Of a stretch of DNA of 64,000 bases, positions 20,998 to 63,066 are shown in pieces (position 1 is the first letter of the stretch; the number at the start of each line of letters is the position of its first letter). Location: contig CAVXEH010000002.1 in assembly GCA_963760875.1 (NCBI GenBank), positions 336,258 through 400,257 on the forward strand, in the 5' to 3' direction. Below the pieces are notes generated by a model. It was not told the origin of the DNA and made no database searches. It saw only the letters and a list, made by a program, of their open reading frames with translations. Made by a program: the position numbers and the translations under genes. This DNA comes from an uncultured Chloroflexia bacterium (GTDB lineage: Bacteria > Chloroflexota > Limnocylindria > QHBO01).

Positions 20998-21095
20998 CCG
21001 GTCCTAGCGCTGTGCTATCCCACGTGAAGGCCTGAGCGAAACCAGCTCAATTATGCGCTCTTCCCGATCGTCGCTCCTCGCCCATCAGACGAGGT

Positions 21096-41073: not shown

Positions 41074-41094
41074 GAGAGTCACTCTGAGAGTCAC
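41074..41094. repeat. Tandem 9-mer GAGAGTCAC-tct-GAGAGTCAC
   Basis: Direct observation in the gene-poor segment 40.56-41.54 kb. Confidence 0.7.
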
Positions 41095-41222
41095 GCCTCA
41101 GTAAAGTTGGCTGATCTGACCGGTACCGGATACCGGATTCGGTGTAAGAGGCCGCTCCAAGGTGCTGTGAGCGCGGCCATGCCGCTGGAGAGGGCAGCAG
41201 ACCGCAGGAATCGGCTGGGCAT

Positions 41223-41255
41223 AGGGGTCAGATTAGGGGTCAGATTAGGGGTCAC
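41223..41255. repeat. Tandem 12-mer AGGGGTCAGATT x2.7
   Basis: AGGGGTCAGATTAGGGGTCAGATTAGGGGTCAC. Confidence 0.8.
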
Positions 41256-44481: not shown

Positions 44482-45555
44482 TCAGAACGGCATGTCGTCT
44501 ACGTCAGCGAACGACGGTGCTTCCCCGAAGTCGACCTCTTCCTCGTCGGCGGGTCCGGTTTCGTCGTCCATTGCATCCAGTGTGGCAGCGAGATGGCCGA
44601 TCATCACGTCCGCACGCGCGAGCACTTGGTCAAAGGTGAGGATCTCGACCCCGCTGAGGTGCGCGTTCAGGCGGCGGAGGGCGCGTCGACGATCGTCATC
44701 CCAGTCATTCGACCTGCCGATCACGATCCGGATGCGCGGGTAGACCACCGGCAGGTGGTAACGGTCCCTGAGAACGAACTTCTGGTCGTCGAGCTTCTCG
44801 AGGTAGCTCAGGGACTGCCCAAGAGCGGCGCCGAAGTCGCCAGCTGGTCTCCACGTGCGATGCGACGGGTCCCAGGTCAAGACGCTCGCTGACACACGCT
44901 TGAGCTCAAACAGGTCAAGGAACCCGTCGGCCGTCCTCATGATGAAGTCGCCCTGAGCTTCGATGTCGAACTGTCGGCGATCTTCGCGGGCGACGTACTC
45001 GGACCCGAAGATCCACGGGTGGGCCTCGAACCAGGACTGCAGCTCGCGCTCGAGCGGGTCCTCATCAACCAGCGCCGCCAGCTCGGCTTTGCCCCGCCGC
45101 ATGCGGGCGAGATTGCTGGCTGCTTGGAGGACTTGCGTGTCCTCCTCCTCCATCAGACGGATGATTGGCAGGAACGCCTTGGGGTTGCGGCGGAGACCCG
45201 AAAGCAGGCTGAGAATCCCTTGTGCGTCCGGCTTGTTGTCGTCGATCAGAACAGTGAGGTAGCGGGTAGAGCGGCCCTGTGGCAACGCCTCGCGCCATGC
45301 CACCATGTGCGAGAACAAGCTGTCGAATGCAGAGCCCTCGAGCGGGATATGCTCGGTCGGCTCGGATGGCCACGCGTCGGCCAATCCCGATCGCTGCCAC
45401 CGATCGATCTTCAGGCGGATCGAGTGCGGGCTACCGTCGGGTCGGCGGATCAGCACTGCTCGAACGCGGACACGAACTCGGGGACCTTCGTGGAGCGTGA
45501 CATCCTCGGAGAACCCGAGGTTCCCGTGCGTCTCTATGCGGCCCCCCTTGTCCAT
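44482..45555 (-). CDS. PD-(D/E)xK-like nuclease-domain protein (possible DUF4263/Shedu-like); candidate defense protein
   Basis: GGAGG SD 9 nt upstream of ATG. The C-terminal region has the restriction-endonuclease-like signature IMRTADGFLDLFELKR (D...D-x-ELK) followed by RIRIVIGRS. The N-terminal ~200 aa are unique. Confidence 0.45.
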   Translation of the reverse strand: MDKGGRIETHGNLGFSEDVTLHEGPRVRVRVRAVLIRRPDGSPHSIRLKIDRWQRSGLADAWPSEPTEHIPLEGSAFDSLFSHMVAWREALPQGRSTRYLTVLIDDNKPDAQGILSLLSGLRRNPKAFLPIIRLMEEEDTQVLQAASNLARMRRGKAELAALVDEDPLERELQSWFEAHPWIFGSEYVAREDRRQFDIEAQGDFIMRTADGFLDLFELKRVSASVLTWDPSHRTWRPAGDFGAALGQSLSYLEKLDDQKFVLRDRYHLPVVYPRIRIVIGRSNDWDDDRRRALRRLNAHLSGVEILTFDQVLARADVMIGHLAATLDAMDDETGPADEEEVDFGEAPSFADVDDMPF

Positions 45556-46693: not shown

Positions 46694-46936
46694 TCAACGA
46701 TGCTATCGCCGGTCAGCGGAGGCGGCGCATCGTTTCGGGCGTCTCGCCGAGCGCGAGGCTGGCACTTACGCAGCAGGCTCAGTGATCGTGAGCGCGGACT
46801 ACAGATGTTGTGGGGTTCGCTAGGCACGAAAGGAGTCGAGCCTTCGGTCCCCTGATCCAGAGTCAGGTGCCTTACCGCTTGGCCACGCCCCAACGTTTGA
46901 ACGGGACCCGGGCTTCGCCCGGCCTTCCTTTTGGGA

Positions 46937-47022: not shown

Positions 47023-47189
47023 GCGTGCTCGCTGGCTGCGAGTCCTCCCGAGCCTCCCGACCTGCATAGTCCGGATCCGGCGTTGTCCCCGTAAGCTCCA
47101 CATGGGTCTCAGTCGATGATCTCGCGCTCGATCATGACTCTCGGTCGCCGCGGATCGCCTGCTTTGGAACACGCGTAGGAGGAGAGTGC

Positions 47190-47240
47190 CGGCGGCTGTT
47201 AACCGCTTGGTCGCAGGTTCGAGTCCTGCCGCCGGAGCCA
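47190..47240 (+). pseudogene. tRNA-Asn(GUU) 3' fragment (positions ~26-76: anticodon arm, variable loop, T-arm, acceptor 3' strand, CCA) lacking a 5' acceptor strand and D-arm
   Basis: C-GGCGG-CTGTTAA-CCGCT-TGGTC-GCAGG-TTCGAGT-CCTGC-CGCCGGA-G-CCA. The anticodon loop CUGUUAA is canonical for Asn and the T-loop TTCGAGT is canonical. Upstream sequence (...ACACGCGTAGGAGGAGAGTGC) cannot form a D-arm or acceptor pairing. Confidence 0.55.
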
Positions 47241-47275
47241 CTCTTGTCGTTGACTTCCTAAGTATGCTCTAGGAT

Positions 47276-47890
47276 GTGAACGACAACGCACGGATGACGG
47301 GGCCTGATCAGGAAGCCCTGTTCGAGACGGCCAGCGCCCAGGCCGGGTACTTCACGGCGGCCCAGGCGCTGGATCACGGCTTCAGTTCGGCGCTGCTGAC
47401 CCATCACACGAAGACCGGGCGCTTCCTGCGCGTTGCCCGCGGACTGTACCGGCTGCGCGACTACCCGTCCGCGCCGGGCGAGGAGATCGTCGCCGCGTGG
47501 CTTCGCCAGGCACCCCGCGCGGTCGTGTCGCACGAGTCAGCGCTGGAGCTGCTCGGCCTGTCCGACACCATCGCCGATCAGGTCCACCTCACGGTCCCTC
47601 GCGAGCGTCGTCGACTGGTGTCGCAACCCGGGGTCACGATCCACACCACGACGCACCCATTCACCGAGACTGACCTCATCAGCCGCCACGGCGTTCGGCT
47701 CACGGCGCCGGCCCGCACCATCGTCGATGTCGCGGGAGCGGGTCTGGCTCCCGACCAGGTCGCGGCAGCCGTCAGCCAGGCGCTGCGGCGAGGGCTCACC
47801 ACGCCGGCCCTGCTCCGCGAGGCGGCTCGTTCGCGCGGTCATCGGGTCCAGCGGCTGGTCGAAGCCGCGCTCGCTGGGGCTGGTATATGA
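47276..47890 (+). CDS. AbiEi-family antitoxin/transcriptional regulator (type IV TA / abortive infection)
   Basis: N-terminal AbiEi_4-like wHTH (FETASAQAGYFTAAQALDHGFSSALLTHHTKTGRFLRVARGLYRL) and a C-terminal domain. Overlaps the downstream AbiEii gene by 4 bp. Confidence 0.65.
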   Translation: MNDNARMTGPDQEALFETASAQAGYFTAAQALDHGFSSALLTHHTKTGRFLRVARGLYRLRDYPSAPGEEIVAAWLRQAPRAVVSHESALELLGLSDTIADQVHLTVPRERRRLVSQPGVTIHTTTHPFTETDLISRHGVRLTAPARTIVDVAGAGLAPDQVAAAVSQALRRGLTTPALLREAARSRGHRVQRLVEAALAGAGI

Positions 47891-48774
47891 GGTACGCCTC
47901 TGCGGGCGCCTTCCGCCGGGCGCTCGAGATGCGTCTTACTACGCACGCGCGCGGCACCGGCAGCTCGGTGGTCCGCCTGCGCAAGGAGGTCGCCTTCGAT
48001 CGGCTGCTCGCTCGTCTGTTCGCCGTGGCGCCGGCGCGCTGGGTCCTGAAGGGCGCCCTGGCGCTCGACTACCGCTTCGGCGACCGCGCCCGAACGACGA
48101 AGGACATCGATCTCGCCAACACTGGGGACGAGGCTTCTGCGACGAACGAGCTGCTCGCGGCGCAGGCGGTCGATCTTGGCGACTTCTTCGGCTTCGCGAT
48201 CGAGCGCACGAGCGCCCTCGAACGTCTGGCGGAGGGTACCGCCGTGCGCTATCACGTCCGCGCCGAGCTGGCCGGTCGGGTGTTCGATGAATTCCTGCTC
48301 GATGTGGGCTTCGACCCGCCAACCGGGATCGAGCTCGACCGGCTACACGGGCCGGACCTCCTGGTCTTCGCCGAGATCACGCCCGTCGAGGTCGCAGCCA
48401 TCCCGATCGAGTTCCACGTGGCCGAGAAGCTCCATGCCTTCAGTCGCGTCTATAGCGTGGGCTCGATCGTGAGCACCCGCGTGAAGGACCTCGTCGACCT
48501 CGTGCTCATCGCGGCCGAAGCCACTCTGGAGGCAGCGAGGCTCCGGTCGGCCATCAGGACCACCTTCGGTCGCAGGGCGAACCGTGAGCTGCCCGCAGGC
48601 CTGCCCCGTCCACCAGGCGACTGGCGCGTCCCGTATGGCCGGATGGCGCGTGTGGTCGGCCTCGATCCTGACCTTGAGGCCGGCTTCGGCTTGGCCGCGC
48701 GGATGCTCGATCCGATTCTCGGGCGCACCGTTCACCGTGGCGCGTGGGATCGTGTCGCTCAGACCTGGACCTGA
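47887..48774 (+). CDS. AbiEii/AbiGii-family nucleotidyltransferase toxin
   Basis: Motif LKGALALDYRFGDRARTTKDIDL (KGGxAL...R.S.DIDL) typical of DUF1814/AbiEii nucleotidyltransferases. 295 aa. Confidence 0.7.
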   Translation: MRYASAGAFRRALEMRLTTHARGTGSSVVRLRKEVAFDRLLARLFAVAPARWVLKGALALDYRFGDRARTTKDIDLANTGDEASATNELLAAQAVDLGDFFGFAIERTSALERLAEGTAVRYHVRAELAGRVFDEFLLDVGFDPPTGIELDRLHGPDLLVFAEITPVEVAAIPIEFHVAEKLHAFSRVYSVGSIVSTRVKDLVDLVLIAAEATLEAARLRSAIRTTFGRRANRELPAGLPRPPGDWRVPYGRMARVVGLDPDLEAGFGLAARMLDPILGRTVHRGAWDRVAQTWT

Positions 48775-50432: not shown

Positions 50433-50693
50433 TTACCTCGACATGTGTCTGGAACGACTGGCAGCCGTGCGACTCCGGTCTCGTTTCAGGACCGCACGAC
50501 AGTCTGGGCAATATCGCTGGACCGGCGAGCGGCGTTCGACGACTTGATGGCAACGCGCGCACTGGACGAGCGCGACCTTCAGCCACGCGCGCGATCGAGC
50601 CGTGGGGCGGGAGAGCGAGATGCGACTCTCAGTCGTTCCACGCGAATTCAGTACACGGCCGGCTCCCGCCCGGCCAGATGACCCTGCGGCCAA
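50433..50693 (-). CDS. Stand-alone 86-aa zinc-ribbon-like ORF homologous to the C-terminal module of the serine recombinase at 60585-62345 (fragment or domesticated small protein)
   Basis: AGAGRVLNSRGTTESRISLSRPTARSRAWLKVALVQCARCHQVVERRSPVQRYCPDCRAVLKR aligns with the recombinase C-terminus. About 80% nucleotide identity over ~250 bp. Confidence 0.4.
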   Translation of the reverse strand: MAAGSSGRAGAGRVLNSRGTTESRISLSRPTARSRAWLKVALVQCARCHQVVERRSPVQRYCPDCRAVLKRDRSRTAASRSRHMSR

Positions 50694-50751: not shown

Positions 50752-51969
50752 TTACTCGAGCGCGTTGTCGACTGACATGGCAGGGATGCCTACCTCGATC
50801 GCAAGCCCGCCGGCTTGCCTCGCGCGAGCCCTGACGATGCCGCCATGGGCGTCGGCAATCGCCCGCACAATCGAGAGGCCGAGTCCCCACCCTTCTTGGC
50901 CAGCCGATCGATCGGGCAGTCGCTGGAATGGCTGAAACAGCCGCTCGACTTCCATCGCCGGGATCGGCAGGCCGGTGTTGGTGACCCGCAGGACGGCCTC
51001 CCCGAAATGTCTTTCCGTCGAGATCTCGATCGCACCGTTGGGGATGTTGTACTTGGTCGCGTTGTCGACCAGATTGGCCGCGAGCCGCTCGAGCAGCTGA
51101 GGATCACCGCGCACATCCGCGCGATCCAAGCGCTCCTCGAGGTGCAGCCCGGCTGCCTCGATGCCGTGGCGCCGAGTTCGCAGCGCGGCGTCGACGGACT
51201 CGGCGAGGTCAGCCCGCTCCGCGCGTTCCAGCCCGCGCTCGCCGCGTGCCAGGGTGAACAGCGCCTCGAATAGCCGCTCCTGCTGCTCCTCGGCGACCAG
51301 AACTCGCTCGAAGGTTGCGCGCCAGCCGTCCATCGTGGGCTCCGGGTCGTCGAGCGCGTACTGGACCAGCGCCCGCTGTCGCGCGAGTGGTGTGCGCAAC
51401 TCGTGCGAGGCGTTGGCGACGAACTGCCGTTGCGCCTCGAAGGACCGCTCGAGTCGGCCCAGGAGATCGTCGAACGTCTGCCCGAGATCCTTCAGCTCGT
51501 CGTCCGGGCCGGCCGGGGCCAGCCGGAGCCCGAGGTTCGTGCTCGAGATCTCCCGTGCGGACGCGGACATGGTGCGCAGTCGCCGCAGCAGACGCCCGGC
51601 CACGAACCACCCGATCGCCACTGAGGCGAGGGCCAGGCTCGCAATCGCCACCATGGACAGGATCAGGTAGTAGCGTTGCTCCGCAACATGCTGGCCCTCG
51701 ACCACCGATCTGAGCAGCTTCGGCAGGTCCGCCGCGGAACCACCGAAGGGAGCAGCCAGGGTGTTCGCACCTCCGCCGCCGAACGGGCCGCCGAAGTCGA
51801 CCGTCACCTGGCCGTCGGAACCAACGTTCACGGCCAGATTGGTCGTCGTGAACGCCACATACGAGACCCCGAGGAGTGCAGCCCCCGCGAGCAGGATCAG
51901 CGCGCCGTACAGCAGCGCCAGGCGGAGGCGGATCGTGATCCGCGGCAGGTGGGGAATCGGGAGTCTCAT
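50752..51969 (-). CDS. Sensor histidine kinase (HAMP-HisKA-HATPase)
   Basis: H-box ASHELRTPLA; N, G1 (DNATKY), G2 (GWGLGLSIV) boxes; two N-terminal TM segments. Confidence 0.8.
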   Translation of the reverse strand: MRLPIPHLPRITIRLRLALLYGALILLAGAALLGVSYVAFTTTNLAVNVGSDGQVTVDFGGPFGGGGANTLAAPFGGSAADLPKLLRSVVEGQHVAEQRYYLILSMVAIASLALASVAIGWFVAGRLLRRLRTMSASAREISSTNLGLRLAPAGPDDELKDLGQTFDDLLGRLERSFEAQRQFVANASHELRTPLARQRALVQYALDDPEPTMDGWRATFERVLVAEEQQERLFEALFTLARGERGLERAERADLAESVDAALRTRRHGIEAAGLHLEERLDRADVRGDPQLLERLAANLVDNATKYNIPNGAIEISTERHFGEAVLRVTNTGLPIPAMEVERLFQPFQRLPDRSAGQEGWGLGLSIVRAIADAHGGIVRARARQAGGLAIEVGIPAMSVDNALE

Positions 51970-51991
51970 CTCGCCTCGCCCGCTGGTGTCA

Positions 51992-52645
51992 TCAGATCCG
52001 GTACCCAGCCTCCACGACCGTCTCGATGAGCGGCGGATCGCCCAGCTTGGCCCGGAGGCGGCTCACGGTCGTCCTGACCGCCTGCGAGAACGGATCGGCG
52101 TTCTCGTCCCACACTCGCTCGAGGAGTTCCTCCGATGACACCACGCGACCCTCGGCGGCGAGGAGCAGCTCGAGCACGCCCAGCTCCTTGGGGCTCAGCT
52201 CGACGAGCTGGCCGGCGCGCCGGACCCGTCGGCGGGCGGTGTCGAGCTCCAGATCGTCGTGCCGCAAGACTGGCGGGAGGGCGGGTTGCGAGCGCCGCAC
52301 GAGGGCGCGGACGCGAGCCACCACTTCGGGGAGGTCGAACGGCTTGCCGATGTAGTCGTCGGCCCCGCGGCCGAGCCCGTCGACGAGGTCATCGGTCGTG
52401 GCCGCGGCCGTCAGCATGAGCACCCGGGCGCGGCATCCTCGCGAGACGAGCTCGGCGCAGACCTGGTCGCCGTGGACGCCGGGCAGGTCGCGGTCGAGGA
52501 CGATGACGTCGTAGTCGTGCTCCAATGCGCGCTCGAGGCCCGCACTGCCATCGAGCGCGATGTCCACCGCCATCTGCGCCCGGCGCAGGGTCGCACCGAC
52601 GATCTCCGCCAGCTCCTGGTCGTCTTCGATCACCAGCACGCGCAT
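51992..52645 (-). CDS. OmpR/PhoB-family response regulator
   Basis: REC domain (VLVIEDD...DVIVLDRDLPG...) plus C-terminal winged helix (LSPKELGVLELLL...). Confidence 0.85.
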   Translation of the reverse strand: MRVLVIEDDQELAEIVGATLRRAQMAVDIALDGSAGLERALEHDYDVIVLDRDLPGVHGDQVCAELVSRGCRARVLMLTAAATTDDLVDGLGRGADDYIGKPFDLPEVVARVRALVRRSQPALPPVLRHDDLELDTARRRVRRAGQLVELSPKELGVLELLLAAEGRVVSSEELLERVWDENADPFSQAVRTTVSRLRAKLGDPPLIETVVEAGYRI

Positions 52646-52905
52646 CGGCTCCTACCGTCGACTTCCCATCAAGCGAATCGGCCCGCATCGGTGGCCGACC
52701 CGTCCTGCCCGTCCATGATCGCTTCCCCACGTTGCGCGGGCATAACACCACGTCGCGAGGCGCCGAGTCTGCTGTTCGCGGCGTTATCCGGTCGCAACAT
52801 CCCATCGCCCATACCTCTTCACGGCGGCGGCGAACGCGGCCGGTTACCGGTAGTGACGAGAGGAGCGACCATGCGTGCCGCCTGGACGAGGCGAAGGGAA
52901 ACCCG

Positions 52906-53622
52906 ATGAGCGGGCCAGCGACGACAATTCTGCGCGCCCGCGGACTGCGCAAGGACTATGGCGCGGGTCCAGGACTGGTGCGGGCTGTTCATGACCTCGA
53001 CCTCGATGTCGCGCGCGGCGAAGCCGTCGCCGTGATGGGCCCGAGCGGCTGTGGGAAATCCACACTCCTCCACCTGCTTGGCGGGCTCGATCGGCCCACG
53101 GCCGGCGAGGTCTGGGTCAACGAGCGCCGGATCGACGCCCTCTCGCAGCGCGCCCTGGCCCGGGTGCGGCAGATGGAGGTTGCCTTCGTCTTTCAGGCGT
53201 TCCACCTCATGGAGGAGCTCACCGCCCAGGAGAACGTGGAGCTCCCGGCGCTCCTTGGTGGACGCCGGCCGGACGACGCCCGTCGGAGTGCCAGATCCCT
53301 GCTCGACCAGGTCGGCCTCGCCGGTCGGGCCGAGCATCTGCCATCGGGGCTCTCGGGCGGCGAGCGCCAGCGGGTGGCCATCGCCCGGGCGCTGGCCAAC
53401 GAGCCGGCGATCGTGCTCGCCGACGAGCCGACAGGCAATCTCGACAGCACCGCGACCCGGGAGGTCGTCGCCTTGCTCGGGTCACTCCACCGATCGGGTC
53501 TCACGGTCGTCATCGTCACCCATGACGAGCGGGTCGCCGCGACCGCGGATCGCATCGTGTCGATGCGCGACGGCGCCTTCGGCGATCGGCATGGCGCCAA
53601 CGGCGCCGTCGCGAGGAACTGA
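52906..53622 (+). CDS. ABC transporter ATP-binding protein (MacB/LolD/FtsE-like)
   Basis: Walker A GPSGCGKST; signature LSGGERQRVAIARAL; Walker B VLADEPTGNLD; H-loop VTHD. Confidence 0.85.
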   Translation: MSGPATTILRARGLRKDYGAGPGLVRAVHDLDLDVARGEAVAVMGPSGCGKSTLLHLLGGLDRPTAGEVWVNERRIDALSQRALARVRQMEVAFVFQAFHLMEELTAQENVELPALLGGRRPDDARRSARSLLDQVGLAGRAEHLPSGLSGGERQRVAIARALANEPAIVLADEPTGNLDSTATREVVALLGSLHRSGLTVVIVTHDERVAATADRIVSMRDGAFGDRHGANGAVARN

Positions 53623-53624
53623 CG

Positions 53625-55463
53625 ATGGGCCGCGCGCTGCTCATCGCCCGCCTGGGGTTGAAGGACCTGGGACACTACGCCGGCCAGTCCCTCCTGCTCC
53701 TTCTCGCGGTGGCCACCGGGGCCGCGATGTTGACGCTCGGCCTGGCCCTGGATGGAACGACCAACGACCCGTACGCCCGGACCCGCACGGCCACAAACGG
53801 GCCCGATGTGGTGGCCGAAGCCGCCCCGTCCGATGCCCTCGGGAGCGGCTCGGGGCCGGCCCAGCCAGGCCCCGGGCGCGGAGGACCGGAGAGCCAGACC
53901 AACGTCGCCGATGCCAGGGTGCTTGTGCCCCTCGAGCAGGCGGCTGGCGTGATCGGCTCCTCAGGCCCGTTCCCGATGACATGGGGCTTGCTGCGGATGC
54001 CGAGTGGGGACGGCGCGGCGTTGGTGGTTGGGCGCGACCCTGCGGCGTCGTCGGTCGACCAGCCGCAGTTATTACAGGGCAGCTGGGTTCGGCCCGGCGG
54101 CGTGGTGGTCGAGGCCAGCTTCGCCGCGGCAGTCGGTCTTCAGATCGGCGATCCGCTGAGCATCGGCGGCCGGTCCTACGTCGTGGTTGGAATCGCCGTG
54201 ACGGCCGCGATTCCCACCTATCCGGATGGATGCCATTACCTCGGCTGCTTCCTGGTCGGGACCCTCGGCGATTCCAACCCGGGTCTCATCTGGGTCCCTG
54301 CTCCCGACGTGCCGGGCATCGCTGCGGCAAGCAAGGAGCCGCTCTTCTACGTCTTGAATCTGAAGCTCAGCGATCCCGCCGACGCTCCGGTCTTCGCCGA
54401 ACGCCGCAATGCGGACGCCGCCGCGACGGGCATCACGCTGTTCACCTGGCAGGGCATCCGTGCCGCCGATGCCGATGCGGTCGGCACCATGCAGCAGGTG
54501 CTGTTCACCGGGAGCGCACTGCTCGATCTGCTGGCACTCCTGAGTGTGGTGGTGCTCGTCGGCGCTCGCATGGCGGCGCAGAGGCGCCGGGTCGGCCTGC
54601 TGAAGGCCGTTGGTGCCACGCCCGAGTTCGTCGCAGCGGTACTGCTCGTCGAGCACGCCCTGGTCGCGGTTTGCGGCGCCGGGGCGGGCCTGCTCATCGG
54701 CTGGCTGGCGGCGCCGTTGATCAACGGACCGGGCGCCGGGCTCCTGGGCGCGGCCAGCGCCGCGTCGCTCACCGGCTCGGTCGTCGCGATCGTGGTGGTG
54801 CTCGCGCTCGCCGTGGCCATGGTGGCGACGCTCGTGCCCGCCGTGGGCGCTGCCCGGCAGAGCACCGTGGCGGCACTGGAGGACGCGGCGCATCCCCCGC
54901 GGCGTCGGGAGACGGTGCTGCGGGCCACGGAGCACCTGCCCGCGACGCTGCTCGTGGGTGTCCGGCTTGCGATGCGCCGGCCAAGGAGACTGGCGGTGAG
55001 TGCGCTCAGCGTCGCGGTCACAACCTTCGGGCTCGTCGCGGTGCTGATCGTCAACACCACCGGCTGGTCACTCGGCCCGCGCGTTGCCCAGGCGACCGTC
55101 ATCGTGTCGGTGATGCTCGTCATCCTGGCCGCGGTGAACGCCCTTGTCATCGCCTGGGCCACCGCGCTCGATACTCGACGGCCAGCCGCCCTGATGCGTG
55201 CCCTCGGCGCAACACGGGTGCAGGTGACGACCGGCTTGGCGCTGGCCCAACTGGGCCCAGCGTTCGTGGGAGTGCTGCTCGGCATCCCTGGCCCGATCGT
55301 GCTCTACCTGCGTGGCGGCCGCCTGTCGACATCACCCCCGGTGCTCCCGCTGGTGGCCGTGGTCATCGTCACGCTGCTGGCGATCGCGGCGCTCACCGCC
55401 CTCGCGACGCTGGCTGCTTCCCGCGGACCGGTGGCCGACGTCCTTCAGGCCGATACCGCCTGA
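53625..55463 (+). CDS. ABC transporter permease, FtsX-like (MacB-type, two FtsX domains)
   Basis: ATG overlaps the upstream ATPase stop. 612 aa with two sets of 4 TM helices and large extracytoplasmic domains. Confidence 0.8.
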   Translation: MGRALLIARLGLKDLGHYAGQSLLLLLAVATGAAMLTLGLALDGTTNDPYARTRTATNGPDVVAEAAPSDALGSGSGPAQPGPGRGGPESQTNVADARVLVPLEQAAGVIGSSGPFPMTWGLLRMPSGDGAALVVGRDPAASSVDQPQLLQGSWVRPGGVVVEASFAAAVGLQIGDPLSIGGRSYVVVGIAVTAAIPTYPDGCHYLGCFLVGTLGDSNPGLIWVPAPDVPGIAAASKEPLFYVLNLKLSDPADAPVFAERRNADAAATGITLFTWQGIRAADADAVGTMQQVLFTGSALLDLLALLSVVVLVGARMAAQRRRVGLLKAVGATPEFVAAVLLVEHALVAVCGAGAGLLIGWLAAPLINGPGAGLLGAASAASLTGSVVAIVVVLALAVAMVATLVPAVGAARQSTVAALEDAAHPPRRRETVLRATEHLPATLLVGVRLAMRRPRRLAVSALSVAVTTFGLVAVLIVNTTGWSLGPRVAQATVIVSVMLVILAAVNALVIAWATALDTRRPAALMRALGATRVQVTTGLALAQLGPAFVGVLLGIPGPIVLYLRGGRLSTSPPVLPLVAVVIVTLLAIAALTALATLAASRGPVADVLQADTA

Positions 55464-55515: not shown

Positions 55516-55827
55516 CTATAGGTCAGAGCCTGGATCGGCGTTCCGTTGCACCTTCCGTCGCTGCATCATCGCCTCCCGGCTGAGCTTGCGTTTGAGGACG
55601 GCTCGACACGCCGGACAATGGCGTTGTACTGGGGACTTCCGCTCGACGACCTGAAGGCAGCCGGCGCACTCGACGAGTGCGATCTTCAGCCACTCGCGGG
55701 AGCGAGGCTGGTGGGGGAGCGGGATACCGCTCTCGGTCGCGCCCAACCGATTCAGTACACGGCTGGCTCCGGCCCGCCGGAGCCAGCTACCAGGTGGTAG
55801 CATGTTTTCGACCCGTGATCCAAGCAC
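55516..55827 (-). CDS. Stand-alone 103-aa zinc-ribbon-like ORF homologous to the serine recombinase C-terminal module (second copy)
   Basis: SWLRRAGASRVLNRLGATESGIPLPHQPRSREWLKIALVECAGCLQVVERKSPVQRHCPACRAVLKR. Nucleotide similarity to 50.5 kb and 60.7 kb copies includes the conserved palindrome GGCTCCGGCCCGCCGGAGCC. Confidence 0.4.
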   Translation of the reverse strand: MLGSRVENMLPPGSWLRRAGASRVLNRLGATESGIPLPHQPRSREWLKIALVECAGCLQVVERKSPVQRHCPACRAVLKRKLSREAMMQRRKVQRNADPGSDL

Positions 55828-56034
55828 GGATCGGCCGTTCTAGCGCCCTGACAAGCTAGCCGAAGAGGGTTAGGTTCGAACCGCTTCCGACGCTCTGGAC
55901 GAGGAGCGCGGCCGGCATGGTGATCGCGCCGCTCTCAACCCGCGGATTCGACGGTTTTGGTCGTCGCTTGACGCATGTAAGGCATTACCCTATGGTAATG
56001 CCTTACCAACTGGTCATGCGTTAGGAGCACCGTC

Positions 56035-56463
56035 ATGCCGCAGGTCACGCGCACGGTTCATATCCCGCGGTCGCCGAGCATCGTCTGGAAGCAGTTCGCG
56101 TCGGAACGCGCGTTGCGCCGGTGGCTGGCGCCGACGATCAGCATCGACCTCCAGGAAGGCGGCGACTATCGCATCCCCGGTGCCGATGGCCCGACCTCGA
56201 TCAGCGGCGTCGTGCTGGAGCTCGTCCCCGAAGGTCGCCTCGTGCTGTCGTGGCTGGAAGAAGGTTCGGAGTGGCGTCACCCCGGTCGGCTGGTGATCGC
56301 CCTTCGCGCCGAGGGTGACGGGACCGAGGTCACGCTGACGCACGATGGCTTCGCCGGCATTGGAACCTCGGGCTGGAAGGCAACCCGGGAAGCGTACGAG
56401 CGTGGCGTTGATCGCCATAAGCTGCTGCAGCGGCTTGCGGACGTGGTACTTGAGCGTGGCTGA
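56035..56463 (+). CDS. SRPBCC-superfamily protein (AHSA1/activator-of-Hsp90-ATPase-homolog-like)
   Basis: 142 aa; RTVHIPRSPSIVWKQFASERALRRWLAP...GGDYRI...SGVVLELVPEGRLVLSW typical of AHSA1-type SRPBCC. Commonly paired with ArsR regulators. Confidence 0.65.
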   Translation: MPQVTRTVHIPRSPSIVWKQFASERALRRWLAPTISIDLQEGGDYRIPGADGPTSISGVVLELVPEGRLVLSWLEEGSEWRHPGRLVIALRAEGDGTEVTLTHDGFAGIGTSGWKATREAYERGVDRHKLLQRLADVVLERG

Positions 56464-56794
56464 CGAATCAGATCCCTTCCGAGCGCTCGCGGACCCGACG
56501 CGTCGCCGCATCCTCGACCTCCTCCTGGAGCGAGGCAGCCTCACCGTCGGCGAGCTCGCCACCGAATTCCCCGACCTCGTGCCTTCAGGCATCTCCAAGC
56601 ACCTCATGAACCTCCGTGCCGCCGGACTGGTCGTCGCCCAGAAGGAGGGCCGGCACCAGCGCTACCGGATCGACCAGGATGGGCTCACGGCAGCGTTCGG
56701 CCCCTGGGTCGCCCGGTACGAGGCCCTGTGGACCAGCGCCCTGCAGCGACTCCGAGATCTCGCCACGGAGCGCCCGGAGCCCCGGGCTCGTTGA
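56456..56794 (+). CDS. ArsR/SmtB-family transcriptional regulator
   Basis: DPTRRRILDLLLERGSLTVGELATEF...ISKHLMNLRAAGLVVAQKEGRHQRYRI. GTG start overlaps the SRPBCC stop. Confidence 0.75.
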   Translation: MADESDPFRALADPTRRRILDLLLERGSLTVGELATEFPDLVPSGISKHLMNLRAAGLVVAQKEGRHQRYRIDQDGLTAAFGPWVARYEALWTSALQRLRDLATERPEPRAR

Positions 56795-56819
56795 TGAACA
56801 CCCGCGCCCCTTGTCCCTG

Positions 56820-56957
56820 CTAGGTCTGCCCGAGAGCGTTTGGGAACCAGCGCGAAGCGCGCCAGCCGCGGGCCAGGATCCACACGAGCTGGGCCGCATT
56901 CGCCGCTCCGACCTTGGAACGCGCATTCGCCAGGTGAGGCTTCACGGTGAAATTGTG
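56820..56957 (-). pseudogene. Remnant of a LuxR-type HTH (C-terminal ~45 codons only)
   Basis: The minus-strand translation HNFTVKPHLANARSKVGAANAAQLVWILARGWRASRWF...* matches the LuxR C-terminal helix-turn-helix (TVKTHLSNIFxKLGVxNRxQ) but has no upstream coding partner. Confidence 0.45.
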
Positions 56958-57044
56958 ACAGGCCAAGGCGGTGGGCGGCCGCCTTCTCCGACCCGGCGAC
57001 CGAAGGTCACCTGGCGTCTTCGCTCAGGTTGAGGACATCGTCAG

Positions 57045-57428
57045 CTACGCCTGGCGCTTCGCCACGCCGGCCCGAGCGATGGCCTCGACCGCTGCCGCGT
57101 CGAACACATCGCCCTCATACCAGTCGATGCCGCGCCGCCGGCTGCTGTCGGGGTACGCGTTGAAGAGGTGGTGCGGGTCTGGCAGCAGCGCGCCGTCGCT
57201 CATCGTGAGGCGGACCCGCTCCTTGAGGACGTTGACGTGGCACACGATGCCGTCGTGTTCGAAGCAGGGAGTTCCCGGGAGCGTCGCCGAGACCCACTTC
57301 CACGTCTCGACGATCTCGGGATCTGCGGCATGGATCGCCGCACGAAGCCGAGCCACCATCTCGCCCTTCCAGCCAGGGTTCGAGGCGATCAGCTCGTCCA
57401 GCCGCGGGTTTCGATTTGTCTCCATCAC
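57045..57428 (-). CDS. DUF1801 (YdhG-like) domain protein
   Basis: 127 aa; LDELIASNPGWKGEMVARLRAAIHAADPEIVETWKWVSATL...GIVCHVNVLKERVRLTMSDG typical of DUF1801. Confidence 0.6.
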   Translation of the reverse strand: MMETNRNPRLDELIASNPGWKGEMVARLRAAIHAADPEIVETWKWVSATLPGTPCFEHDGIVCHVNVLKERVRLTMSDGALLPDPHHLFNAYPDSSRRRGIDWYEGDVFDAAAVEAIARAGVAKRQA

Positions 57429-57825
57429 TCGCGACTATCTCACAGCAGCGGCGAGACAGCGCATGCCTCCACCGAGGCCTACAACCCATATGGAATGGAC
57501 ACGACCATGATTCGGCTCGCGGGCGTCTTCCTCGTCAACTTCGGGTTCAACTGGGGGCCTCGCGAGCCGATGCGGCGTGAGCAGCATGTGCGCGCTTGGA
57601 GTTGGCTGCGCACCACCGTCCTCAGCCATCCCTTCGGGGACAACGTTGTCGGCAGATATGGAATGCTTCGCCTGTGAGCTGATCAAAGACCCGACGAAGG
57701 TGCCCGGCGGCGGATCGCCACGATGGGGATGTGGGTGGTCGAGCAGTGCATCGGGCCCCCTGGGAGTGGGGACGGTCGTCGTCGAGCCATTCGTCACAGA
57801 CATTCGGTAAGGTCTAGGGATCGGT

Positions 57826-58692
57826 ATGGCAATGCAGGCGTCAGAGGTACCGCGCGCGGTGGCTGCGGCCACGTCGACCGCCTCAGCACTCGGCCTGAGG
57901 GTCGACGAGGCGATCGTTCTGCACATCTCGAACAGGCTCGCGTTGCGCCTGCTGCCATCCGACGTTCTTGCGCGTGTGGCTCTCGCAACGCACGAGGCCG
58001 CAAAGCTCGAAGTCGAAGTTGCGGCACGGCTGGCCGCAACGGACAGTCCCGTAGCGACTCTCGATCCTCGAGTGGCGCCGCGCGTCTATGAGCGCAACGG
58101 CTTCGCGATCACGCTCTGGACCTACTACGAGCCCCAGCCGGCTGGCGAGCTCTCACCAGCCGATTACGCTGACGCGCTCTCGCGGCTTCACGTCGGTATG
58201 CAGCACGTCGATGTCAGCGCGCCGCATTTCACGGATCGCGTCAAGGAAGCTCAGCGACTCGTTGGGAGTCGCGACCGGACTTCGGAGCTCGGCGACGCGG
58301 ACCGTGACCTTGTCGTGAACACGTCCAGTCGCGTGATGCGCGCGATCGCCGGGCGAGGCTCCGCGGACCAGCTACTGCACGGCGAGCCCCACCCCGGGAA
58401 CGTCCTTTACACCAAGAACGGCCCGCTGTTCATTGACCTGGAGACTGCTTGTCGCGGTCCGGTCGAATTCGACCTCGCCCATGTCCCGAAGGAGGTCAGC
58501 GAGTGCTATGCGGGCATCGATCAAGCACTGCTCTCCGAGTGCCGCGTCCTCGTTCTTGCGATGGTCGCAGCCTGGCGGCTGGATCCTGAGGACCAGTTCC
58601 CAAGCGGAAGACAGGCGGCCCTGGAGCTCATCGCTGCGTTGCGGGCTGGTCCACCGTACCCGGCGCTCGGCGCCATCTCCGGCCTCAACTGA
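57826..58692 (+). CDS. Aminoglycoside/choline-kinase-like phosphotransferase (APH family)
   Basis: Catalytic loop LLHGEPHPGNVLY (HGDxHxxN) and FIDLE (DxE/D). Confidence 0.7.
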   Translation: MAMQASEVPRAVAAATSTASALGLRVDEAIVLHISNRLALRLLPSDVLARVALATHEAAKLEVEVAARLAATDSPVATLDPRVAPRVYERNGFAITLWTYYEPQPAGELSPADYADALSRLHVGMQHVDVSAPHFTDRVKEAQRLVGSRDRTSELGDADRDLVVNTSSRVMRAIAGRGSADQLLHGEPHPGNVLYTKNGPLFIDLETACRGPVEFDLAHVPKEVSECYAGIDQALLSECRVLVLAMVAAWRLDPEDQFPSGRQAALELIAALRAGPPYPALGAISGLN

Positions 58693-58865
58693 GGCCGAGG
58701 TGAGCAGGGTCCGGATGCCAACCCGGCGCTCGCGATCGGATAGCGCCCAGAAGGGATGGCGGACTTGGAGCCGTGGGCGCACCACGCTCGACGATCTTGG
58801 AGCCGCCCGGCGCTCAGGCGCGCTGGGCTCGAGTCAGCCCGCCGCCCACCGGCGATCGGCGCCCA

Positions 58866-58904
58866 CAACGGCGCAATTGAGCTTCCTTGAACGGACGCTA
58901 TGTC
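58866..58904. repeat. Copy 1 of a ~40-70-bp direct-repeat family (CAACGGCGCAATTGAGCTTCCTTGAACGGACGCTATGTC) upstream of the cupin gene end
   Basis: Near-identical to 59691-59730. Contains an internal hairpin AACGGACgctatGTCCGTT. Confidence 0.7.
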
Positions 58905-58963
58905 CGTTGGTGGCGGTTAAGAGGCGTACCAGGCGGTAGGGGCTGCTGTGCGCCTTTGCCGCC

Positions 58964-59434
58964 TCACTCGACCGGCTCGAGACCGTGCTTGCGCATGTTG
59001 GCCGCCTCCTCGTCCGCAGTGGGCGGTTCCTCCCGTGCCCAGAGCGACGCGAGGTCTTCGAAGTAGCCGTCGAGGGCAGGAGCATGAATGATGAGCGTGC
59101 GGGCGGGCGCATCCGACTCGTTGACGAAGGTGTGACTGGCTCCCTCAGAGACGATGACACAGCCGTTGGCCTCGACGGTCGCTCGCTCGCCGTCGAGGAT
59201 GAAGGTCAGGGTCCCTTCCAGGATCAGGAACATCTCCAATGCGCCGGGGTGACGGTGTGGAGCAGGGGGACGTCCGTGCGGGGGCAGCGTGCGATCCATG
59301 AGCGAGAAACGACCGCCCGTCGTGGCTCCAACCGCCTTGAACAGCATCTGGCTGCCGCGGGCCGTGAGCTGCATTCCCCCGCCGGGCGGCACAATCGTGG
59401 TCAAGCGTGGGTCACCCACTTCATCGACGCGCAC
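58964..59434 (-). CDS. Cupin-domain protein
   Basis: Cupin motifs PHRHPGALEMFLILEGTL and GCVIVSEGASHTFVN. 156 aa. Confidence 0.6.
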   Translation of the reverse strand: MRVDEVGDPRLTTIVPPGGGMQLTARGSQMLFKAVGATTGGRFSLMDRTLPPHGRPPAPHRHPGALEMFLILEGTLTFILDGERATVEANGCVIVSEGASHTFVNESDAPARTLIIHAPALDGYFEDLASLWAREEPPTADEEAANMRKHGLEPVE

Positions 59435-59690
59435 CCCTATGCCTGGCGTGCTGGGTCTACATTATCAAGCGATGACTGCATCGAGTCCAACGGCGTATTT
59501 CGCGCGGCGCTGTGGGCCGCCTTCGGACAAGACTCGCCGCTGGAGCGGTACACGGTCGCCGACGTGTTGCGATAAACCAGCGACCCAGTGATCGCGGGTT
59601 CCCCGTCGGCACGCCCGACGTGGAGCGCCAGGTGGCATTGATCCCGCTCATCGGGTGATCAGCCGGCGCGCCGGACCCACCGTTCACCCC

Positions 59691-59761
59691 CAACGGCGCA
59701 ATTGAACCTTCTTGAACGGACGCTAATGTCGGTGATGACGCGTCGACTCCGTTGGCGCCGA
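59691..59761. repeat. Copy 2 of the repeat family (X part CAACGGCGCAATTGAACCTTCTTGAACGGACGCTA + Y part ATGTCGGTGATGACGCGTCGACTCCGTTGGCGCCGAC)
   Basis: X matches 58866-58904. Y matches 60485-60524 (GTCGGTGATG..CGACTCC..TTG..GCCGAC). Confidence 0.7.
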
Positions 59762-59973
59762 CCCGTCGCGCATGGAGATTGAGCGGCGTCGGCCTGGCCG
59801 AGCGAGGCGGCCGGAAGGTGCTGTCATCGCGCGAGCGCCAGGTCGTCAACGGAATCGCTGTTCTAACCTTTGTAGCGGCGTCCCACAGGATTAGACTCGC
59901 GGGAACGGCGGAGCAGGGGCGTCCGAGCCTGAAGGACAGCCGCGTGATCATCGGGAGAACGGCGGGCAGCACC

Positions 59974-60390
59974 ATGGCCACGGCCAGCGTGCGTTACATC
60001 GTCAACGACGTCGATGTGGCGATCGAGTTCTACACGCGGCTGCTGGGCTTCGCCGAGGTGATGCACCCGGCACCGACGTTCGCCATGCTGTCGCGCGGCG
60101 GCCTGCGGCTGGTGCTCAGCGCGCCGGGCGGTGGACCGGGCGGCGGCCAGGCGATGCCCGACGGAACGCTGCCCCAGCCCGGCGGCTGGAATCGATTCCA
60201 GTTGCAGATCGTCAATCTCGAGTCTACGGTGGCCGAGCTCCGCGCCAGCGGCGCTCGCTTCCGCAACGAAGTCGTCATCGGCATGGGCGGCAAGCAGATC
60301 CTCGTTGAGGATCCGTCCGGCAACCTGGTGGAGCTCTTTGAGCCGACACTGCCGGAAGCCGCACTCGAGGAGCGTGGGCGCGCCACCTGA
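59974..60390 (+). CDS. VOC-family protein (glyoxalase/bleomycin-resistance/dioxygenase fold)
   Basis: VRYIVNDVDVAIEFYTRLLGF...FAMLSRGGLRLVLS...ILVEDPSGNLVELFE typical VOC beta-alpha-beta-beta-beta modules. 138 aa. Confidence 0.65.
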   Translation: MATASVRYIVNDVDVAIEFYTRLLGFAEVMHPAPTFAMLSRGGLRLVLSAPGGGPGGGQAMPDGTLPQPGGWNRFQLQIVNLESTVAELRASGARFRNEVVIGMGGKQILVEDPSGNLVELFEPTLPEAALEERGRAT

Positions 60391-60484
60391 GCCTGCCGGT
60401 GCTCGCACTGGATGCGGAGCGAAGCCGACGTCCCGCGACCCGTGACACCGGCAAACACGCGGACAACGACGTACGAGACGCTAA

Positions 60485-60524
60485 GGTCGGTGATGTAGGT
60501 TCGACTCCCCTTGAACCGCCGACT
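60485..60524. repeat. Copy 3 (Y-part) of the repeat family, just downstream of the serine recombinase gene
   Basis: GGTCGGTGATGTAGGTTCGACTCCCCTTGAACCGCCGAC. Contains a T-loop-like GGTTCGACTCC. Confidence 0.55.
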
Positions 60525-60584
60525 TCAACCTCCTGAGGTCAAGCAATCCGCTCAGGTTAAAGGTCGAGGCTGTCGTTGAGCCGC

Positions 60585-62345
60585 TCAGGCGCGGGCGACG
60601 GCGTCGCGGCTGCGCGCTCGCTTCAAGGCTCGCCGACACTCCACGCAGTGCCGCTGGACCGGTGAGGTCTGTGCGACCACCTGGTGGCATGTCGCGCACT
60701 CGACGAGAGCGGCCTTCAGCCACTCCCGAGTCCGCTCGGGGCGGGGGAGCGAGATGCGGTTCTCAGCCGTTCCGTCCGAATTCAGTACACGCCCGGCTCC
60801 GGCCCGCCGGAGCCACTCACTTACTGCGTCCGACCGGTTAACACCGTGATCGGTCGTCATGTTCCAGACGGCTACGGCCTTCAGCTCGCGGCTGTCGACG
60901 TCGACGCGTTCGAAGAGATCCCTGACGGTCGCGACCCTCGTCTCGAGCGGGGCGCGCTCGAGAATGCCCTCGAACTGCGCGATGGTGTCGTCGACCACCT
61001 TCTTCGTGATCCTGATCGGTCGCTCTCTCAGCTGGAGGTCGTTGAGGCGGGCCGTCGCCGCTTCCAGCTCGGCGCCGAGGGCCTCAATCTCGAGGGTGAT
61101 GCGCTCGGCCGCGCGTGGCCCGGCAGTACGAAGGGCGCGACGCAGGTTCGCATCCTGCTGCTCCAGCTTGCGCACTTGGGCGCGCGCTCGGTCGAGGTCT
61201 GGACCGCGATGCTCGGCCCGCAGTCGGATGTCCTCGTTGAGCAGAGTAACCATCTCGCGGATCGCATCCGGAGTGAAGAGCGTGGCCCGGATGCGGTCCA
61301 TGACCCCGGCCTCGAGGTGATCGGCTCGGACCTGGGGACGGCCACACCGAGCCAGGCAGCGGTAGTACCGCCGCTCCCGCGAATTCGTGCCCGCCATCCG
61401 GCTGCCGCAGGCGCAGCGCAGCAGCTCAGTCAGAACGTATCCGCCGGCGTAGCGTCGAACCGGTAGCCGATTCGCGCGGCGGCGGGTAAGCATCTCTTGG
61501 ACTCGGTTCCAGAGGTGCTCCGGAACAATCGCCTCGACCTCGCTGGTGACGACGTCCTGCTGCGGGTTGGGTCGCCGCTTTCGGCCATGCTCGCCCTCGA
61601 CGCGCGTCTCTCTGTTGAAGACCTTGACCCCGCGGTAGATCGGGTTGGCGAAGATCGTCGCCAGGCTCGACTTGTTCGCGCATATGCCGGTGGCGGCCAC
61701 GATCTCGTCGTACATCGCGCCCTGGGACGCCATCTGGAAGGCCTGGACGACCCGCGGCGCGACCTCCGGATCGGGCACCCAGCGCACCCGGGTGAGTGGC
61801 GTGCCGTCGTAGCGGCTGCCCACGACCACCGGCTCGCGCTTGTAGCCGACAGGTGGGCGACCGCCGGCCGAGTAGCCGTGGCGTGCCAGCTCCTTCTGCG
61901 AGCGCAGCACATCGGCGGCGGTGGCCGCAGCGTAGAACTGGTCGACCGCCATCAGGATGTGGGTGATGAGCATGCCGAGCGGCCCCTCGGGGATCGGCTC
62001 CTTGTAGCTGATGAGCTCGATGCCCCGCTTCCGCAGGAGGGCCCGGTAGATGAGGCCCTCCTCGATATCGCGGCCGAAGCGGCTCAGCTTCCAGAGCAGC
62101 ACCCATTTGAAGCCCGGCTGGGGCTCGCGTGCGCGGCCGACGATCTCCTGGAGTCCGGGCCGGCCCTCAAAGTCGGACCCGCTGATGCCCACATCCTTGA
62201 CGACCTCGCAGGTGGCTCCGGCGGCAGCGACCGCCGCCGTCAGCTCGGCGATCTGGGAGTCGACGGGCAGCTCGTCGTCCGCCTGGTGGGCGGTCGAAAC
62301 GCGGACATAGACGATGCCGTGGGTGCCGGCCGGGATCTTGATCAT
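60585..62345 (-). mobile_element. Large serine recombinase (resolvase domain, recombinase domain, zinc ribbon, coiled coil) with an additional C-terminal CxxC...CxxC module
   Basis: Catalytic GIVYVRVSTAHQ (Ser nucleophile); recombinase-domain blocks; zinc-ribbon LLRCACGSRMAGTNSRERRYYRCLARCGRP; coiled-coil Ala/Leu/Arg-rich region. Extra ~100-aa C-terminal module EWLRRAGAGRVLNSDGTAENRISLPRPERTREWLKAALVECATCHQVVAQTSPVQRHCVECRRALKR. Start likely MIKIPAGT (track ORF extends to 62453). Confidence 0.85.
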
Positions 62346-62415
62346 GGTCCCTCCATCGTAGGTCCAGCCCGCAAGCAGGCGCTCTCGGCCCTGCCGTAGC
62401 GAGTCCGTGTTCTGG

Positions 62416-63066
62416 TCATGCCGCCTGGCCGGCAGCACCCCGGGCGATCTCATCGAGGCGCACCGCTAGACGCCCAACGGTGTCCCCGAGAGTTTCCCGG
62501 TCCCAGAGCAGTCGGCGGTCGTCGTTGCGCAGCATCCACACGTCCACGCTCGTCACCGGCCCGCCGCTGGACCGACCCTCGAAGTGGAGGGCTGACGCCG
62601 TGGCGTAGAGGCAGAGATGCTCGGATCGCGTGATCTCGTGGTCGGTGATCAGGTGACGGAGGTGCCAGCCGTCATCGGACTTGTAAGCGAGGTCGACACC
62701 CATCGCGACCCTCATGCCAAGCACGGCGACAGCGACCTGGTGCATCCCGACCAGGGTCGGCGCCGGCTCGGCTTCATCAAGCGCGGCAAACCGCTCGAGC
62801 ATTCGCCGTCCGTTGGCGATCTCGCTGGCCGCGGTCTCGCGGCGCTTTGCCCGCGACGCGCGGGTGTCGTAGTCCTCCAGGAGGACCCGCGGCTCGCGAC
62901 CACGAGCGATGTAGCGCCGGATCGCAGCGTCGATCCATGGGCGCTGAGGGCTGCGCGGGGTGTCGGGGTCGATAGGGGCGAGCCTTTCTAGCCGGAGCTG
63001 CCGTGCCAGGGCGCCCGGACTCCGGATCCCGGTGCGCAGCTGGCGCGCCGTCAGGACGTTATGCAT
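62416..63066 (-). CDS. Hypothetical protein (216 aa) upstream of the serine recombinase
   Basis: ORF with protein-like composition; no motif recognised. Confidence 0.35.
   Translation of the reverse strand: MHNVLTARQLRTGIRSPGALARQLRLERLAPIDPDTPRSPQRPWIDAAIRRYIARGREPRVLLEDYDTRASRAKRRETAASEIANGRRMLERFAALDEAEPAPTLVGMHQVAVAVLGMRVAMGVDLAYKSDDGWHLRHLITDHEITRSEHLCLYATASALHFEGRSSGGPVTSVDVWMLRNDDRRLLWDRETLGDTVGRLAVRLDEIARGAAGQAA

Follow-up and report, generated by a model that had tools for sequence, protein, structure and literature searches.

What are the repeats that set single genes apart near the right end of this stretch of DNA, and from what were they derived? The stretch (hereafter the window; 64,000 nucleotides (nt) of contig CAVXEH010000002.1, from an uncultured Chloroflexia bacterium) carries a cupin gene and a VOC/glyoxalase gene, each bracketed by repeats, in the order X, cupin, XY, VOC, Y and recombinase, as the original prediction had it. 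X and Y are the two halves of a single unit, XY, and comparison with related genomes makes it likely that this unit is the orphan 3' tail of a Chloroflexota family of large serine recombinase (LSR) genes whose products integrate into tRNA-Pro(CGG). The intact recombinase that adjoins the array is a sister type of the same design, with tRNA-Asn as its target.

The short repeats originally described were confirmed. X occurs at 58866-58900 and 59691-59725, on either side of the cupin gene, as two 35-nt copies mismatched at just three positions, exactly those that had been marked as variable. A pattern search found no third X copy in the window, and none of 100 shuffled sequences contained even one match. 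Y, which flanks the VOC gene, gives start matches at 59719-59737 and 60477-60495. Gapped local alignment of the intergenic regions scores 62 for the X pair (shuffles, 21.2 +/- 2.4) and 42 for the Y pair (shuffles, 20.1 +/- 2.6). The repeat had been put at ~40-70 bp; the actual unit is longer, at ~105-114 nt, and begins at TCAGCC (58834 in copy 1; 59659 in copy 2). A profile built from the XY alignment, used to search the window and related loci, places the three copies of the window at 58843-58918, 59660-59762 and 60434-60528. All three are in direct orientation, with no recombinase between them. Copy 1 (58834..58918; coding sense on the minus strand, tRNA-like sense on the plus strand; nhmmer E=1.1e-12, profile positions 13-88) had been taken for X alone. 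It retains the distal tail codons and the stop (..SVRSRKLNCAVVGADRRWAAG-stop) and extends into Y up to a T-loop-like GGCGGTT, so that a supposed break at GACGCTA was discarded; its loss is confined to the final ~26 nt (T-loop to ACCA). Copy 2 (59659..59763, minus strand in coding sense; E=6.6e-23, profile positions 2-107) is full length, with the open frame GRRQRSRRVITDISVRSRRFNCAVGGERWVRRAG-stop and its stop codon, TCA, at 59659-59661. Copy 3 (60434..60528, minus strand in coding sense; E=2e-14), formerly read as Y alone, has a degenerate X half with a 15-nt internal deletion and a broken frame, and belongs to a second subfamily.

Read on the reverse strand, in the frame anchored on ATC-ACC-GAC, nearly all copies of XY encode GRGERSRT(S/A)ITDLSVRSRRLNCAV(V/I)GADRWLxRAG followed by a stop, which is the TCA that begins the unit. 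Entropy by codon position in the X half is 0.67, 0.51 and 1.26, a coding signature, while that of the Y half is flat, which implies constraint at the DNA level. The same frame runs on into recombinase genes. In locus L017, a frameshifted LSR (Resolvase Pfam match) runs into the 3' end of tRNA-Pro and terminates as ..GRGERI-stop, with XY at the opposite end of the same 3.2-kb element. A 92%-identical LSR in L010, represented by its 3' part, passes in frame through the reverse complement of XY. A database search with the C-terminal region of the L010 protein returned 202 homologues, and the C-termini of the 15 inspected fall into two classes: some end ..SGRGER(I/V/T)-stop, and others follow GRGER with a tail of ~30 aa that ends ..EWLQSA-stop, ..DLHRSA-stop, ..ELARSA-stop or similar (general form ..WLxSA-stop). 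Because the reverse-strand frame continues the recombinase gene, XY reads as the severed tail and P arm of a tRNA-Pro-type LSR, the apparent counterpart of a zinc-ribbon tail found in the tRNA-Asn type.

The Y half corresponds to the 3' half of tRNA-Pro(CGG), positions 37-77, with one 6-nt insertion, TGATGG. An XY copy of L020, aligned with the tRNA-Pro of L015 over the stretch that runs from position 37 to its ACCA end, agrees with it at 41 of 44 aligned bases, apart from the 6-nt insertion. The corresponding counts are 30 of 40 for copy 2, again with the 6-nt insertion, and 38 of 45 for the Y half of copy 3; the window copies are more decayed in this match than the L020 copy. The XY of L015 also includes the tRNA trailer (~10 nt, ATTyGTTCTA). 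A genuine tRNA-Pro(CGG) gene lies ~3 kb upstream of XY, on the same strand, in L015 and L017, and it is only in these two loci, not in the window, that an array starts at an intact target gene. The XY profile matches real tRNA-Pro genes weakly. XY as a tRNA or tmRNA gene in its own right was rejected: searches of the window copies and 13 related loci with ARAGORN and Rfam gave no match (the best, tRNA-Sec, scores 18.6 bits against a threshold of 47), and the tRNA-derived part is a 3' half only. X as a diverged tRNA-Pro 5' half was likewise rejected, in-register identity, counted by eye, being about that of chance. The P and B arms are identical over ~26 nt. In the structural model of LSRs, attB has the motif bound by the zinc-ribbon domain 5 bp closer to its centre than attP does (PMC3783163). 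The P arm described here, which would amount to the B arm with its distal motif moved out by 6 bp, is compatible with that model.

The adjoining recombinase gene (60585..62345, minus strand, in an open reading frame (ORF) spanning 60585-62453) encodes a tRNA-Asn-type LSR of 586 aa in its long, attP form. Its 42 database homologues, with Resolvase, Recombinase and Zn_ribbon_recom domains, are ~514 aa in length and all terminate ..SEWLRR (alignment A1); the window gene has 72 extra codons, a CxxC..CxxC zinc-ribbon-like tail at 60585-60806. The 3' end of tRNA-Asn(GTT), CCGCCGGAGCCACTC, encodes EWLRR when read as its reverse complement. The Asn-type attachment (att) core (60795..60818, no strand assigned) consists of the palindrome GGCTCCGGCCCGCCGGAGCC followed by CCGCCGGAGCCACTC. 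In L001, the gene for a recombinase 81% identical to that of the window ends inside an intact tRNA-Asn. In L002, a 97%-identical recombinase ends in a 55-nt 3' fragment of tRNA-Asn, its protein (P0001) reading on into the tRNA as QDSNLRPSG. The same 55 nt, which in L002 directly abut the LSR gene, recur at 100% identity at window positions 47189-47243, which are 13.5 kb away from the recombinase. There they form part of a 5'-truncated tRNA-Asn(GTT) fragment that ends in the Asn core (47173..47243, plus strand; Rfam tRNA 27.8 bits, model positions 10-63). Between this fragment and the recombinase lie two orphan Asn-type tails on the minus strand. Tail 2 with its core (55516..55785) has 70% nt identity to 60601-60815 and 63% aa identity; tail 1 (50451..50672) has a degenerate core and, to its right, a relic of ~40 nt of an LSR 3' end. 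Compared with the 72-codon extension, the orphan tails show nt identities of 70-74% and aa identities of 63-68%; variability at third codon positions (0.78) is twice that at the first two (0.40), and homology among the three tail copies stops at the core. Tails, core and tRNA together place attP inside the recombinase gene, and the region from 47.2 to 60.8 kb is a 13.5-kb pile-up of element ends, with the tRNA-Asn fragment as its left boundary.

A single mechanism probably accounts for both types. In the free form of the Pro-type element, attP would lie inside the 3' end of the recombinase gene, whose frame would stay open across the crossover region (..SGRGE..) and on into a ~35-codon tail. 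This tail would begin with Y, a near copy of the tRNA-Pro 3' half with six added bases, and the rest, X, would end ..DRWLxRAG-stop. Integration into tRNA-Pro would fuse the recombinase body to the tRNA, the protein now ending ..GRGER(I/V/T)-stop, while the tail cut off from it would form the attR arm at the opposite end of the element. In the Asn type, integration would exchange the tail for tRNA-encoded residues and leave it at the far end of the element. Each XY copy would then be an integration scar (P arm plus core), the distal end of a former element. Tandem scars could have been produced by serial accretion of elements that then lost their recombinase genes, or by co-mobilisation of units without an integrase, and the whole block may later have been carried into other islands. 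We infer both the action of LSRs at XY sites and the route of array formation from the sequences compared.

A more speculative extension, which taken jointly we consider rather unlikely, is that the tail swap serves as a switch of directionality or expression and that the tail-plus-core scars serve as docking sites for recombinase-less modules. As regards the switch, the Asn-type tail is a zinc-ribbon of 72 aa, and the Pro-type tail is ~35 aa, partly encoded by the tRNA mimic. Were the docking sites real, the result would be an LSR-driven module array analogous to the integron.

The XY family is not confined to the window. A Y-centred pattern gave 23 matches in 21 loci of GTDB genomes, of which 15 matches in 13 loci are true XY. 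These come from ~10 Chloroflexota assemblies of metagenome-assembled genomes (MAGs), namely uncultured Chloroflexia MAGs, a Limnocylindrales MAG, another Chloroflexi bin and one bin labelled Steroidobacteraceae. One of the XY contigs is the contig that also gave L007, which places the window's relatives in Chloroflexia. Seven of the 21 Y-pattern loci represent one unrelated conserved coding motif, QLTWMDAKVGDWVVTPR, possibly that of a glycogen-debranching-type enzyme, and L028 is also unrelated. The X pattern had no match in the genome contig collection and a single chance match, L003, in the metagenome scan; viral scans produced chance matches inside coding sequences only, and in the plasmid collection the VOC coding region alone was matched.

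By profile search, L020 has three XY copies (at 1497, 2491 and 4912), L027 and L022 have two each, and L006 and L007 have three each. Spacing in other MAGs is often 0.9-2.4 kb, with different cargo, and the copies are clustered beside LSR or tRNA contexts. Genes ending just before XY include PIN (in L020 and twice in L022), PemK/MazF (L027) and ECF sigma/anti-sigma (L015); as judged from ORF and XY coordinates, the stop codon falls ~0-70 nt before the next XY in several loci. An 833-bp unit of PIN plus XY occurs twice in one contig at 98% identity, with homology that ends exactly at the XY 3' end. The second XY subfamily diverges after GGTTCGACTCC, and an Asn-type tail always follows 60-110 nt further on. 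Its cases are copy 3 of the window, with ~60 nt between it and the stop codon that closes the Asn-type tail, and composites of the same make-up in L022 (twice), L023 and L025. In L022, at 6558-8000, a 1172-bp unit made up of a VapC/PIN gene, XY of subfamily 2, an Asn-type zinc-ribbon tail and the core is repeated in tandem at least twice. The original prediction had staked its case on copies elsewhere with variable cargo, and such copies exist: the repeats are members of a wider family, apparently derived from a recombination site, that delimit small gene modules. As a separate observation, the truncated LSR/XY locus in L010 is preceded on its upstream side by two c-di-GMP-II-GAG riboswitch aptamers (157-242 and 1512-1600; 75 and 71 bits).

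Close relatives of the cupin-VOC block itself were reached through P0043, a VOC protein 99% identical to that of the window, which led to contigs L006-L008, with 94-97% nt identity to window positions 55674-60480. The cupin has 99% aa identity in L006 and L007, in both of which the APH gene is present as a 3' part only. There the block is set in an 11.8-kb island beside tRNA-Gly(TCC), with a tyrosine integrase, and a fourth, full-length XY copy follows the ArsR gene; the window carries another repeat at that position. Beyond 60480, a point within copy 3, the window and L006-L008 are no longer homologous. Because of the different setting in L006 and L007 and the end of homology within copy 3, the cupin-VOC block is best described as a mosaic piece that appears to have moved between islands. 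The repeat that occupies the position of the fourth XY, repeat Z (56863-56998 in the window), occurs twice in L006, inverted, at 4746-4881 and 6042-6175, where it flanks a DUF1801 gene.

Could the arrays instead be a true cassette system, in which recombinase-less circles of cargo plus XY are inserted singly by an LSR acting in trans, with XY in the role of attC? This is the main rival. It would explain why arrays of 0.8-2.4-kb units with one or two genes each occur in several genomes, why the genes are mostly directed toward the following XY with their stops ~0-70 nt away, and why no recombinase relics lie inside the units; the 833-bp PIN duplicate, ending exactly at the XY 3' end, and the repeated 1172-bp VapC/XY/Asn-tail unit of L022 also speak for it. 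However, neither a circular cassette nor an XY-bounded pair of empty and occupied sites was found in the sequences compared. The presence/absence difference of L007 near copy 1 ends within XY rather than at its edge, and this deletion was therefore dropped as a mark of the XY boundary (it ends at profile position 35). The ~40 nt of LSR 3' end kept at the Asn scar at 50672 speak for whole elements having decayed, and reactions between attP-like and attR-like sites fall outside the canonical pairing rules of LSRs (PMC3783163). On balance we judge such a mechanism distinctly unlikely. Still less probable, to the point of being hard to credit, is an origin of the repeats as att copies made by a tyrosine integrase with its crossover in the tRNA-Pro anticodon loop, Y being the identity segment and X the arm-binding region. 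Identity to tRNA-Pro from the anticodon loop past the 3' end is typical of such islands, the centre (ACGGAC-GCTAAG-GTCGGT, by direct reading) is an imperfect inverted repeat, and the L006/L007 block does lie inside a tRNA-Gly island with a tyrosine integrase. That enzyme of L006, however, belongs to tRNA-Gly, none adjoins XY or tRNA-Pro in the loci examined, and the coding constraint on X, in frame with LSR genes, would be left unexplained.

XY might also have a non-coding function of its own, for instance as a tRNA-like small RNA, a processing or terminator signal of the 3' untranslated region, or a regulator-binding site. This possibility draws on the T-arm-like GGAGG-TTCGACT-CCTCT followed by CGCCCCG-ACCA, on the usual position of XY just past a stop codon and on the conservation of the Y half at the nucleotide level. 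It is very improbable in view of the negative ARAGORN and Rfam results and of several further observations. Folding energies of the three window copies, on both strands, are no better than those of shuffles (z-scores -1.3 to +0.9); RNAalifold detects no covariation in the XY alignment; the frequent GGCGG variant disrupts the T stem; and no promoter or terminator consensus is present at the window copies. The hairpin reported earlier, AACGGACgctatGTCCGTT, is indeed present in copy 1, but it is absent from the other copies, and folding is unremarkable in all three. The folding and covariation results also tell against the earlier suggestion of an attC-like site, as do the left and right halves of XY, which are not complementary and form no imperfect palindrome, and the lack of any Phage_integrase Pfam match, and hence of an integron or other tyrosine integrase, in the 30 window ORFs tested (21-64 kb, some small ORFs lying outside the test). 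The alternative suggestion of a MITE (miniature inverted-repeat transposable element) fails as well: no terminal inverted repeats were found at the ends of the unit, which appears to consist of a coding recombinase 3' end and a tRNA-Pro-like att arm, and its copies cluster beside LSR or tRNA contexts rather than being dispersed. Purely local duplication of an intergenic stretch, with no link to mobile DNA, is the least credible reading of all. Within the 64-kb window the three copies are indeed found only here, but the occurrence of the family in many other genomes, beside unrelated genes and joined to LSR genes, contradicts it.

Several points weigh against an origin of XY in tRNA-Pro-type LSR tails. 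The window has no tRNA-Pro gene, its only intact tRNA being tRNA-Gln (46819-46893), and no Pro-type LSR was found in it; the copies thus stand out of their original context, and the lack of a tRNA-Pro gene implies that the block is displaced. No window XY copy has a detectable LSR relic on its right side, where scores are no higher than in shuffles (a candidate to the right of copy 2, ADAAQSPCATGRR, was rejected for this reason), so that loss of the recombinase genes is assumed rather than seen. Recombination of attP with attR or attL lies outside the repertoire of canonical LSRs (PMC3783163), and serial accretion at one site would therefore need a permissive enzyme, such as Ccr, or another route. 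The distance of ~0-70 nt between gene stops and the following XY is tidier than random decay would leave. Finally, no circular form or empty site was observed among the related sequences, which are all MAG contigs. The XY copies of the window are probably inert passengers in a region rich in defence and mobile genes.

The genes of that region are as follows. The cargo between XY copies 1 and 2 is the Cupin_2 gene (58964..59434, minus strand; PF07883, E=3.2e-17), and that between copies 2 and 3 is the VOC/glyoxalase gene (59974..60390, plus strand; PF00903, E=4.6e-10). Upstream of copy 1 lies an APH-family phosphotransferase gene (57826..58692, plus strand; PF01636). Farther to the left, between tRNA relics, are a Shedu SduA-like defence gene (44482-45555, minus strand) and an AbiEi/AbiEii toxin-antitoxin pair (47276-48774, plus strand). 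The interval between the two orphan Asn-type tails (50752-55463) encodes, by ORF translations only, an apparent histidine kinase, a response regulator and an ABC ATPase with its permease. At 41002-41246, an inverted relic of a tRNA-Asn anticodon arm with ~200 nt of flank is 88% identical to the DNA beside the L002 fragment; paired with 47189-47211, this relic makes up an inverted repeat that encloses ~6.2 kb and points to an inversion or rearrangement. At 20952-21016, a tRNA-Gly(TCC) 5'-half fragment matches the repeat that bounds the tyrosine-integrase island of L006 and L007. Since third-position GC content falls from ~0.9 to ~0.72 at the same place, this fragment probably marks where a large island region begins on the left. 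Among homologues of the Asn-type LSR, P0023 (409 aa) also has a Phage_integrase (tyrosine recombinase) Pfam match and could be an integrase fusion or a mis-called junction of two integrases.

Arrays of this kind have precedents. The ssrA islands of Dehalococcoides, also of the phylum Chloroflexota, stand in tandem downstream of a tRNA-like gene, with direct repeats of its 3' end and an LSR on the reverse strand; 15 of 31 lack integration genes, and the DsiB LSR lies next to attL (McMurdie et al. 2011, PMC3146451). The islands without integration genes have been proposed to be cis-mobilisable elements gathered by accretion, and both accretion with recombinase loss and co-mobilisation have been put forward (PMC3146451). 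In contrast to these islands, the targets here are tRNA-Pro and tRNA-Asn, the repeat is ~110 bp rather than 20 bp and includes the recombinase coding tail, the units are far smaller (0.8-2.4 kb), and no DsiA-like second recombinase was seen. The staphylococcal cassette chromosome (SCC) and pseudo-SCC elements, served by CcrAB, share LSR integration at the 3' end of a conserved gene, as well as tandem composites with direct repeats at their ends, some units of which have no recombinase genes (discussed in PMC3146451). They differ in target, host and scale, and their repeats are short non-coding cores, attSCC being outside the ccr genes. Integron attC cassettes are similar in that they are small, mostly single-gene units, each with a 60-140-bp repeat, in which toxin-antitoxin cargo is common. 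Unlike in integrons, no IntI was found here, the repeat combines a piece of coding gene with a tRNA-like arm and is no folded imperfect palindrome with R and L boxes, and the likely enzyme is a serine recombinase. The cassette idea of the original prediction thus survives in a loose sense, that of tandem accretion units whose genes differ between genomes, comparable to the ssrA islands, CIMEs or SCC elements, but not as an integron.

An attP within the integrase's own gene is a feature of Myxococcus phage Mx8, where IntP becomes IntX, and of the SSV-type archaeal integrases. In these systems integration alters or splits the integrase gene, and the C-termini of the integrated and free forms differ. 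Those enzymes are tyrosine recombinases, whereas the enzymes considered here are LSRs, which would exchange only a short C-terminal tail (~35 or 72 aa). To our knowledge, tail swapping on integration has parallels in tyrosine integrases only, and we found no report of tail exchange for LSRs in the full-text literature on LSR att sites and tandem accretion, of which our coverage is incomplete. The kind of structure is therefore a known one, the tandem LSR island; what is new is the location of the att site inside the recombinase gene and the repetition of a ~110-bp coding tail.

This explanation accounts for a cassette-like repeat pattern without integrons. The ~110-bp profile, or the peptide ..ITDLSVRSRRLNCAV..RAG-stop, would provide a simple tracer of past integrations in Chloroflexota MAGs, and the loci described supply natural attP/attB pairs for two uncharacterised LSR types, tRNA-Pro and tRNA-Asn. 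With a P arm equal to the B arm and 6 bp more, these pairs are suited to tests of the half-site spacing model, and the enzymes may supply integrases for genome engineering. Tail swapping is a testable regulatory idea. For the organisms themselves, the arrays suggest that VOC, cupin, toxin-antitoxin and sigma-factor genes travel between islands as small modules in a little-studied soil phylum.

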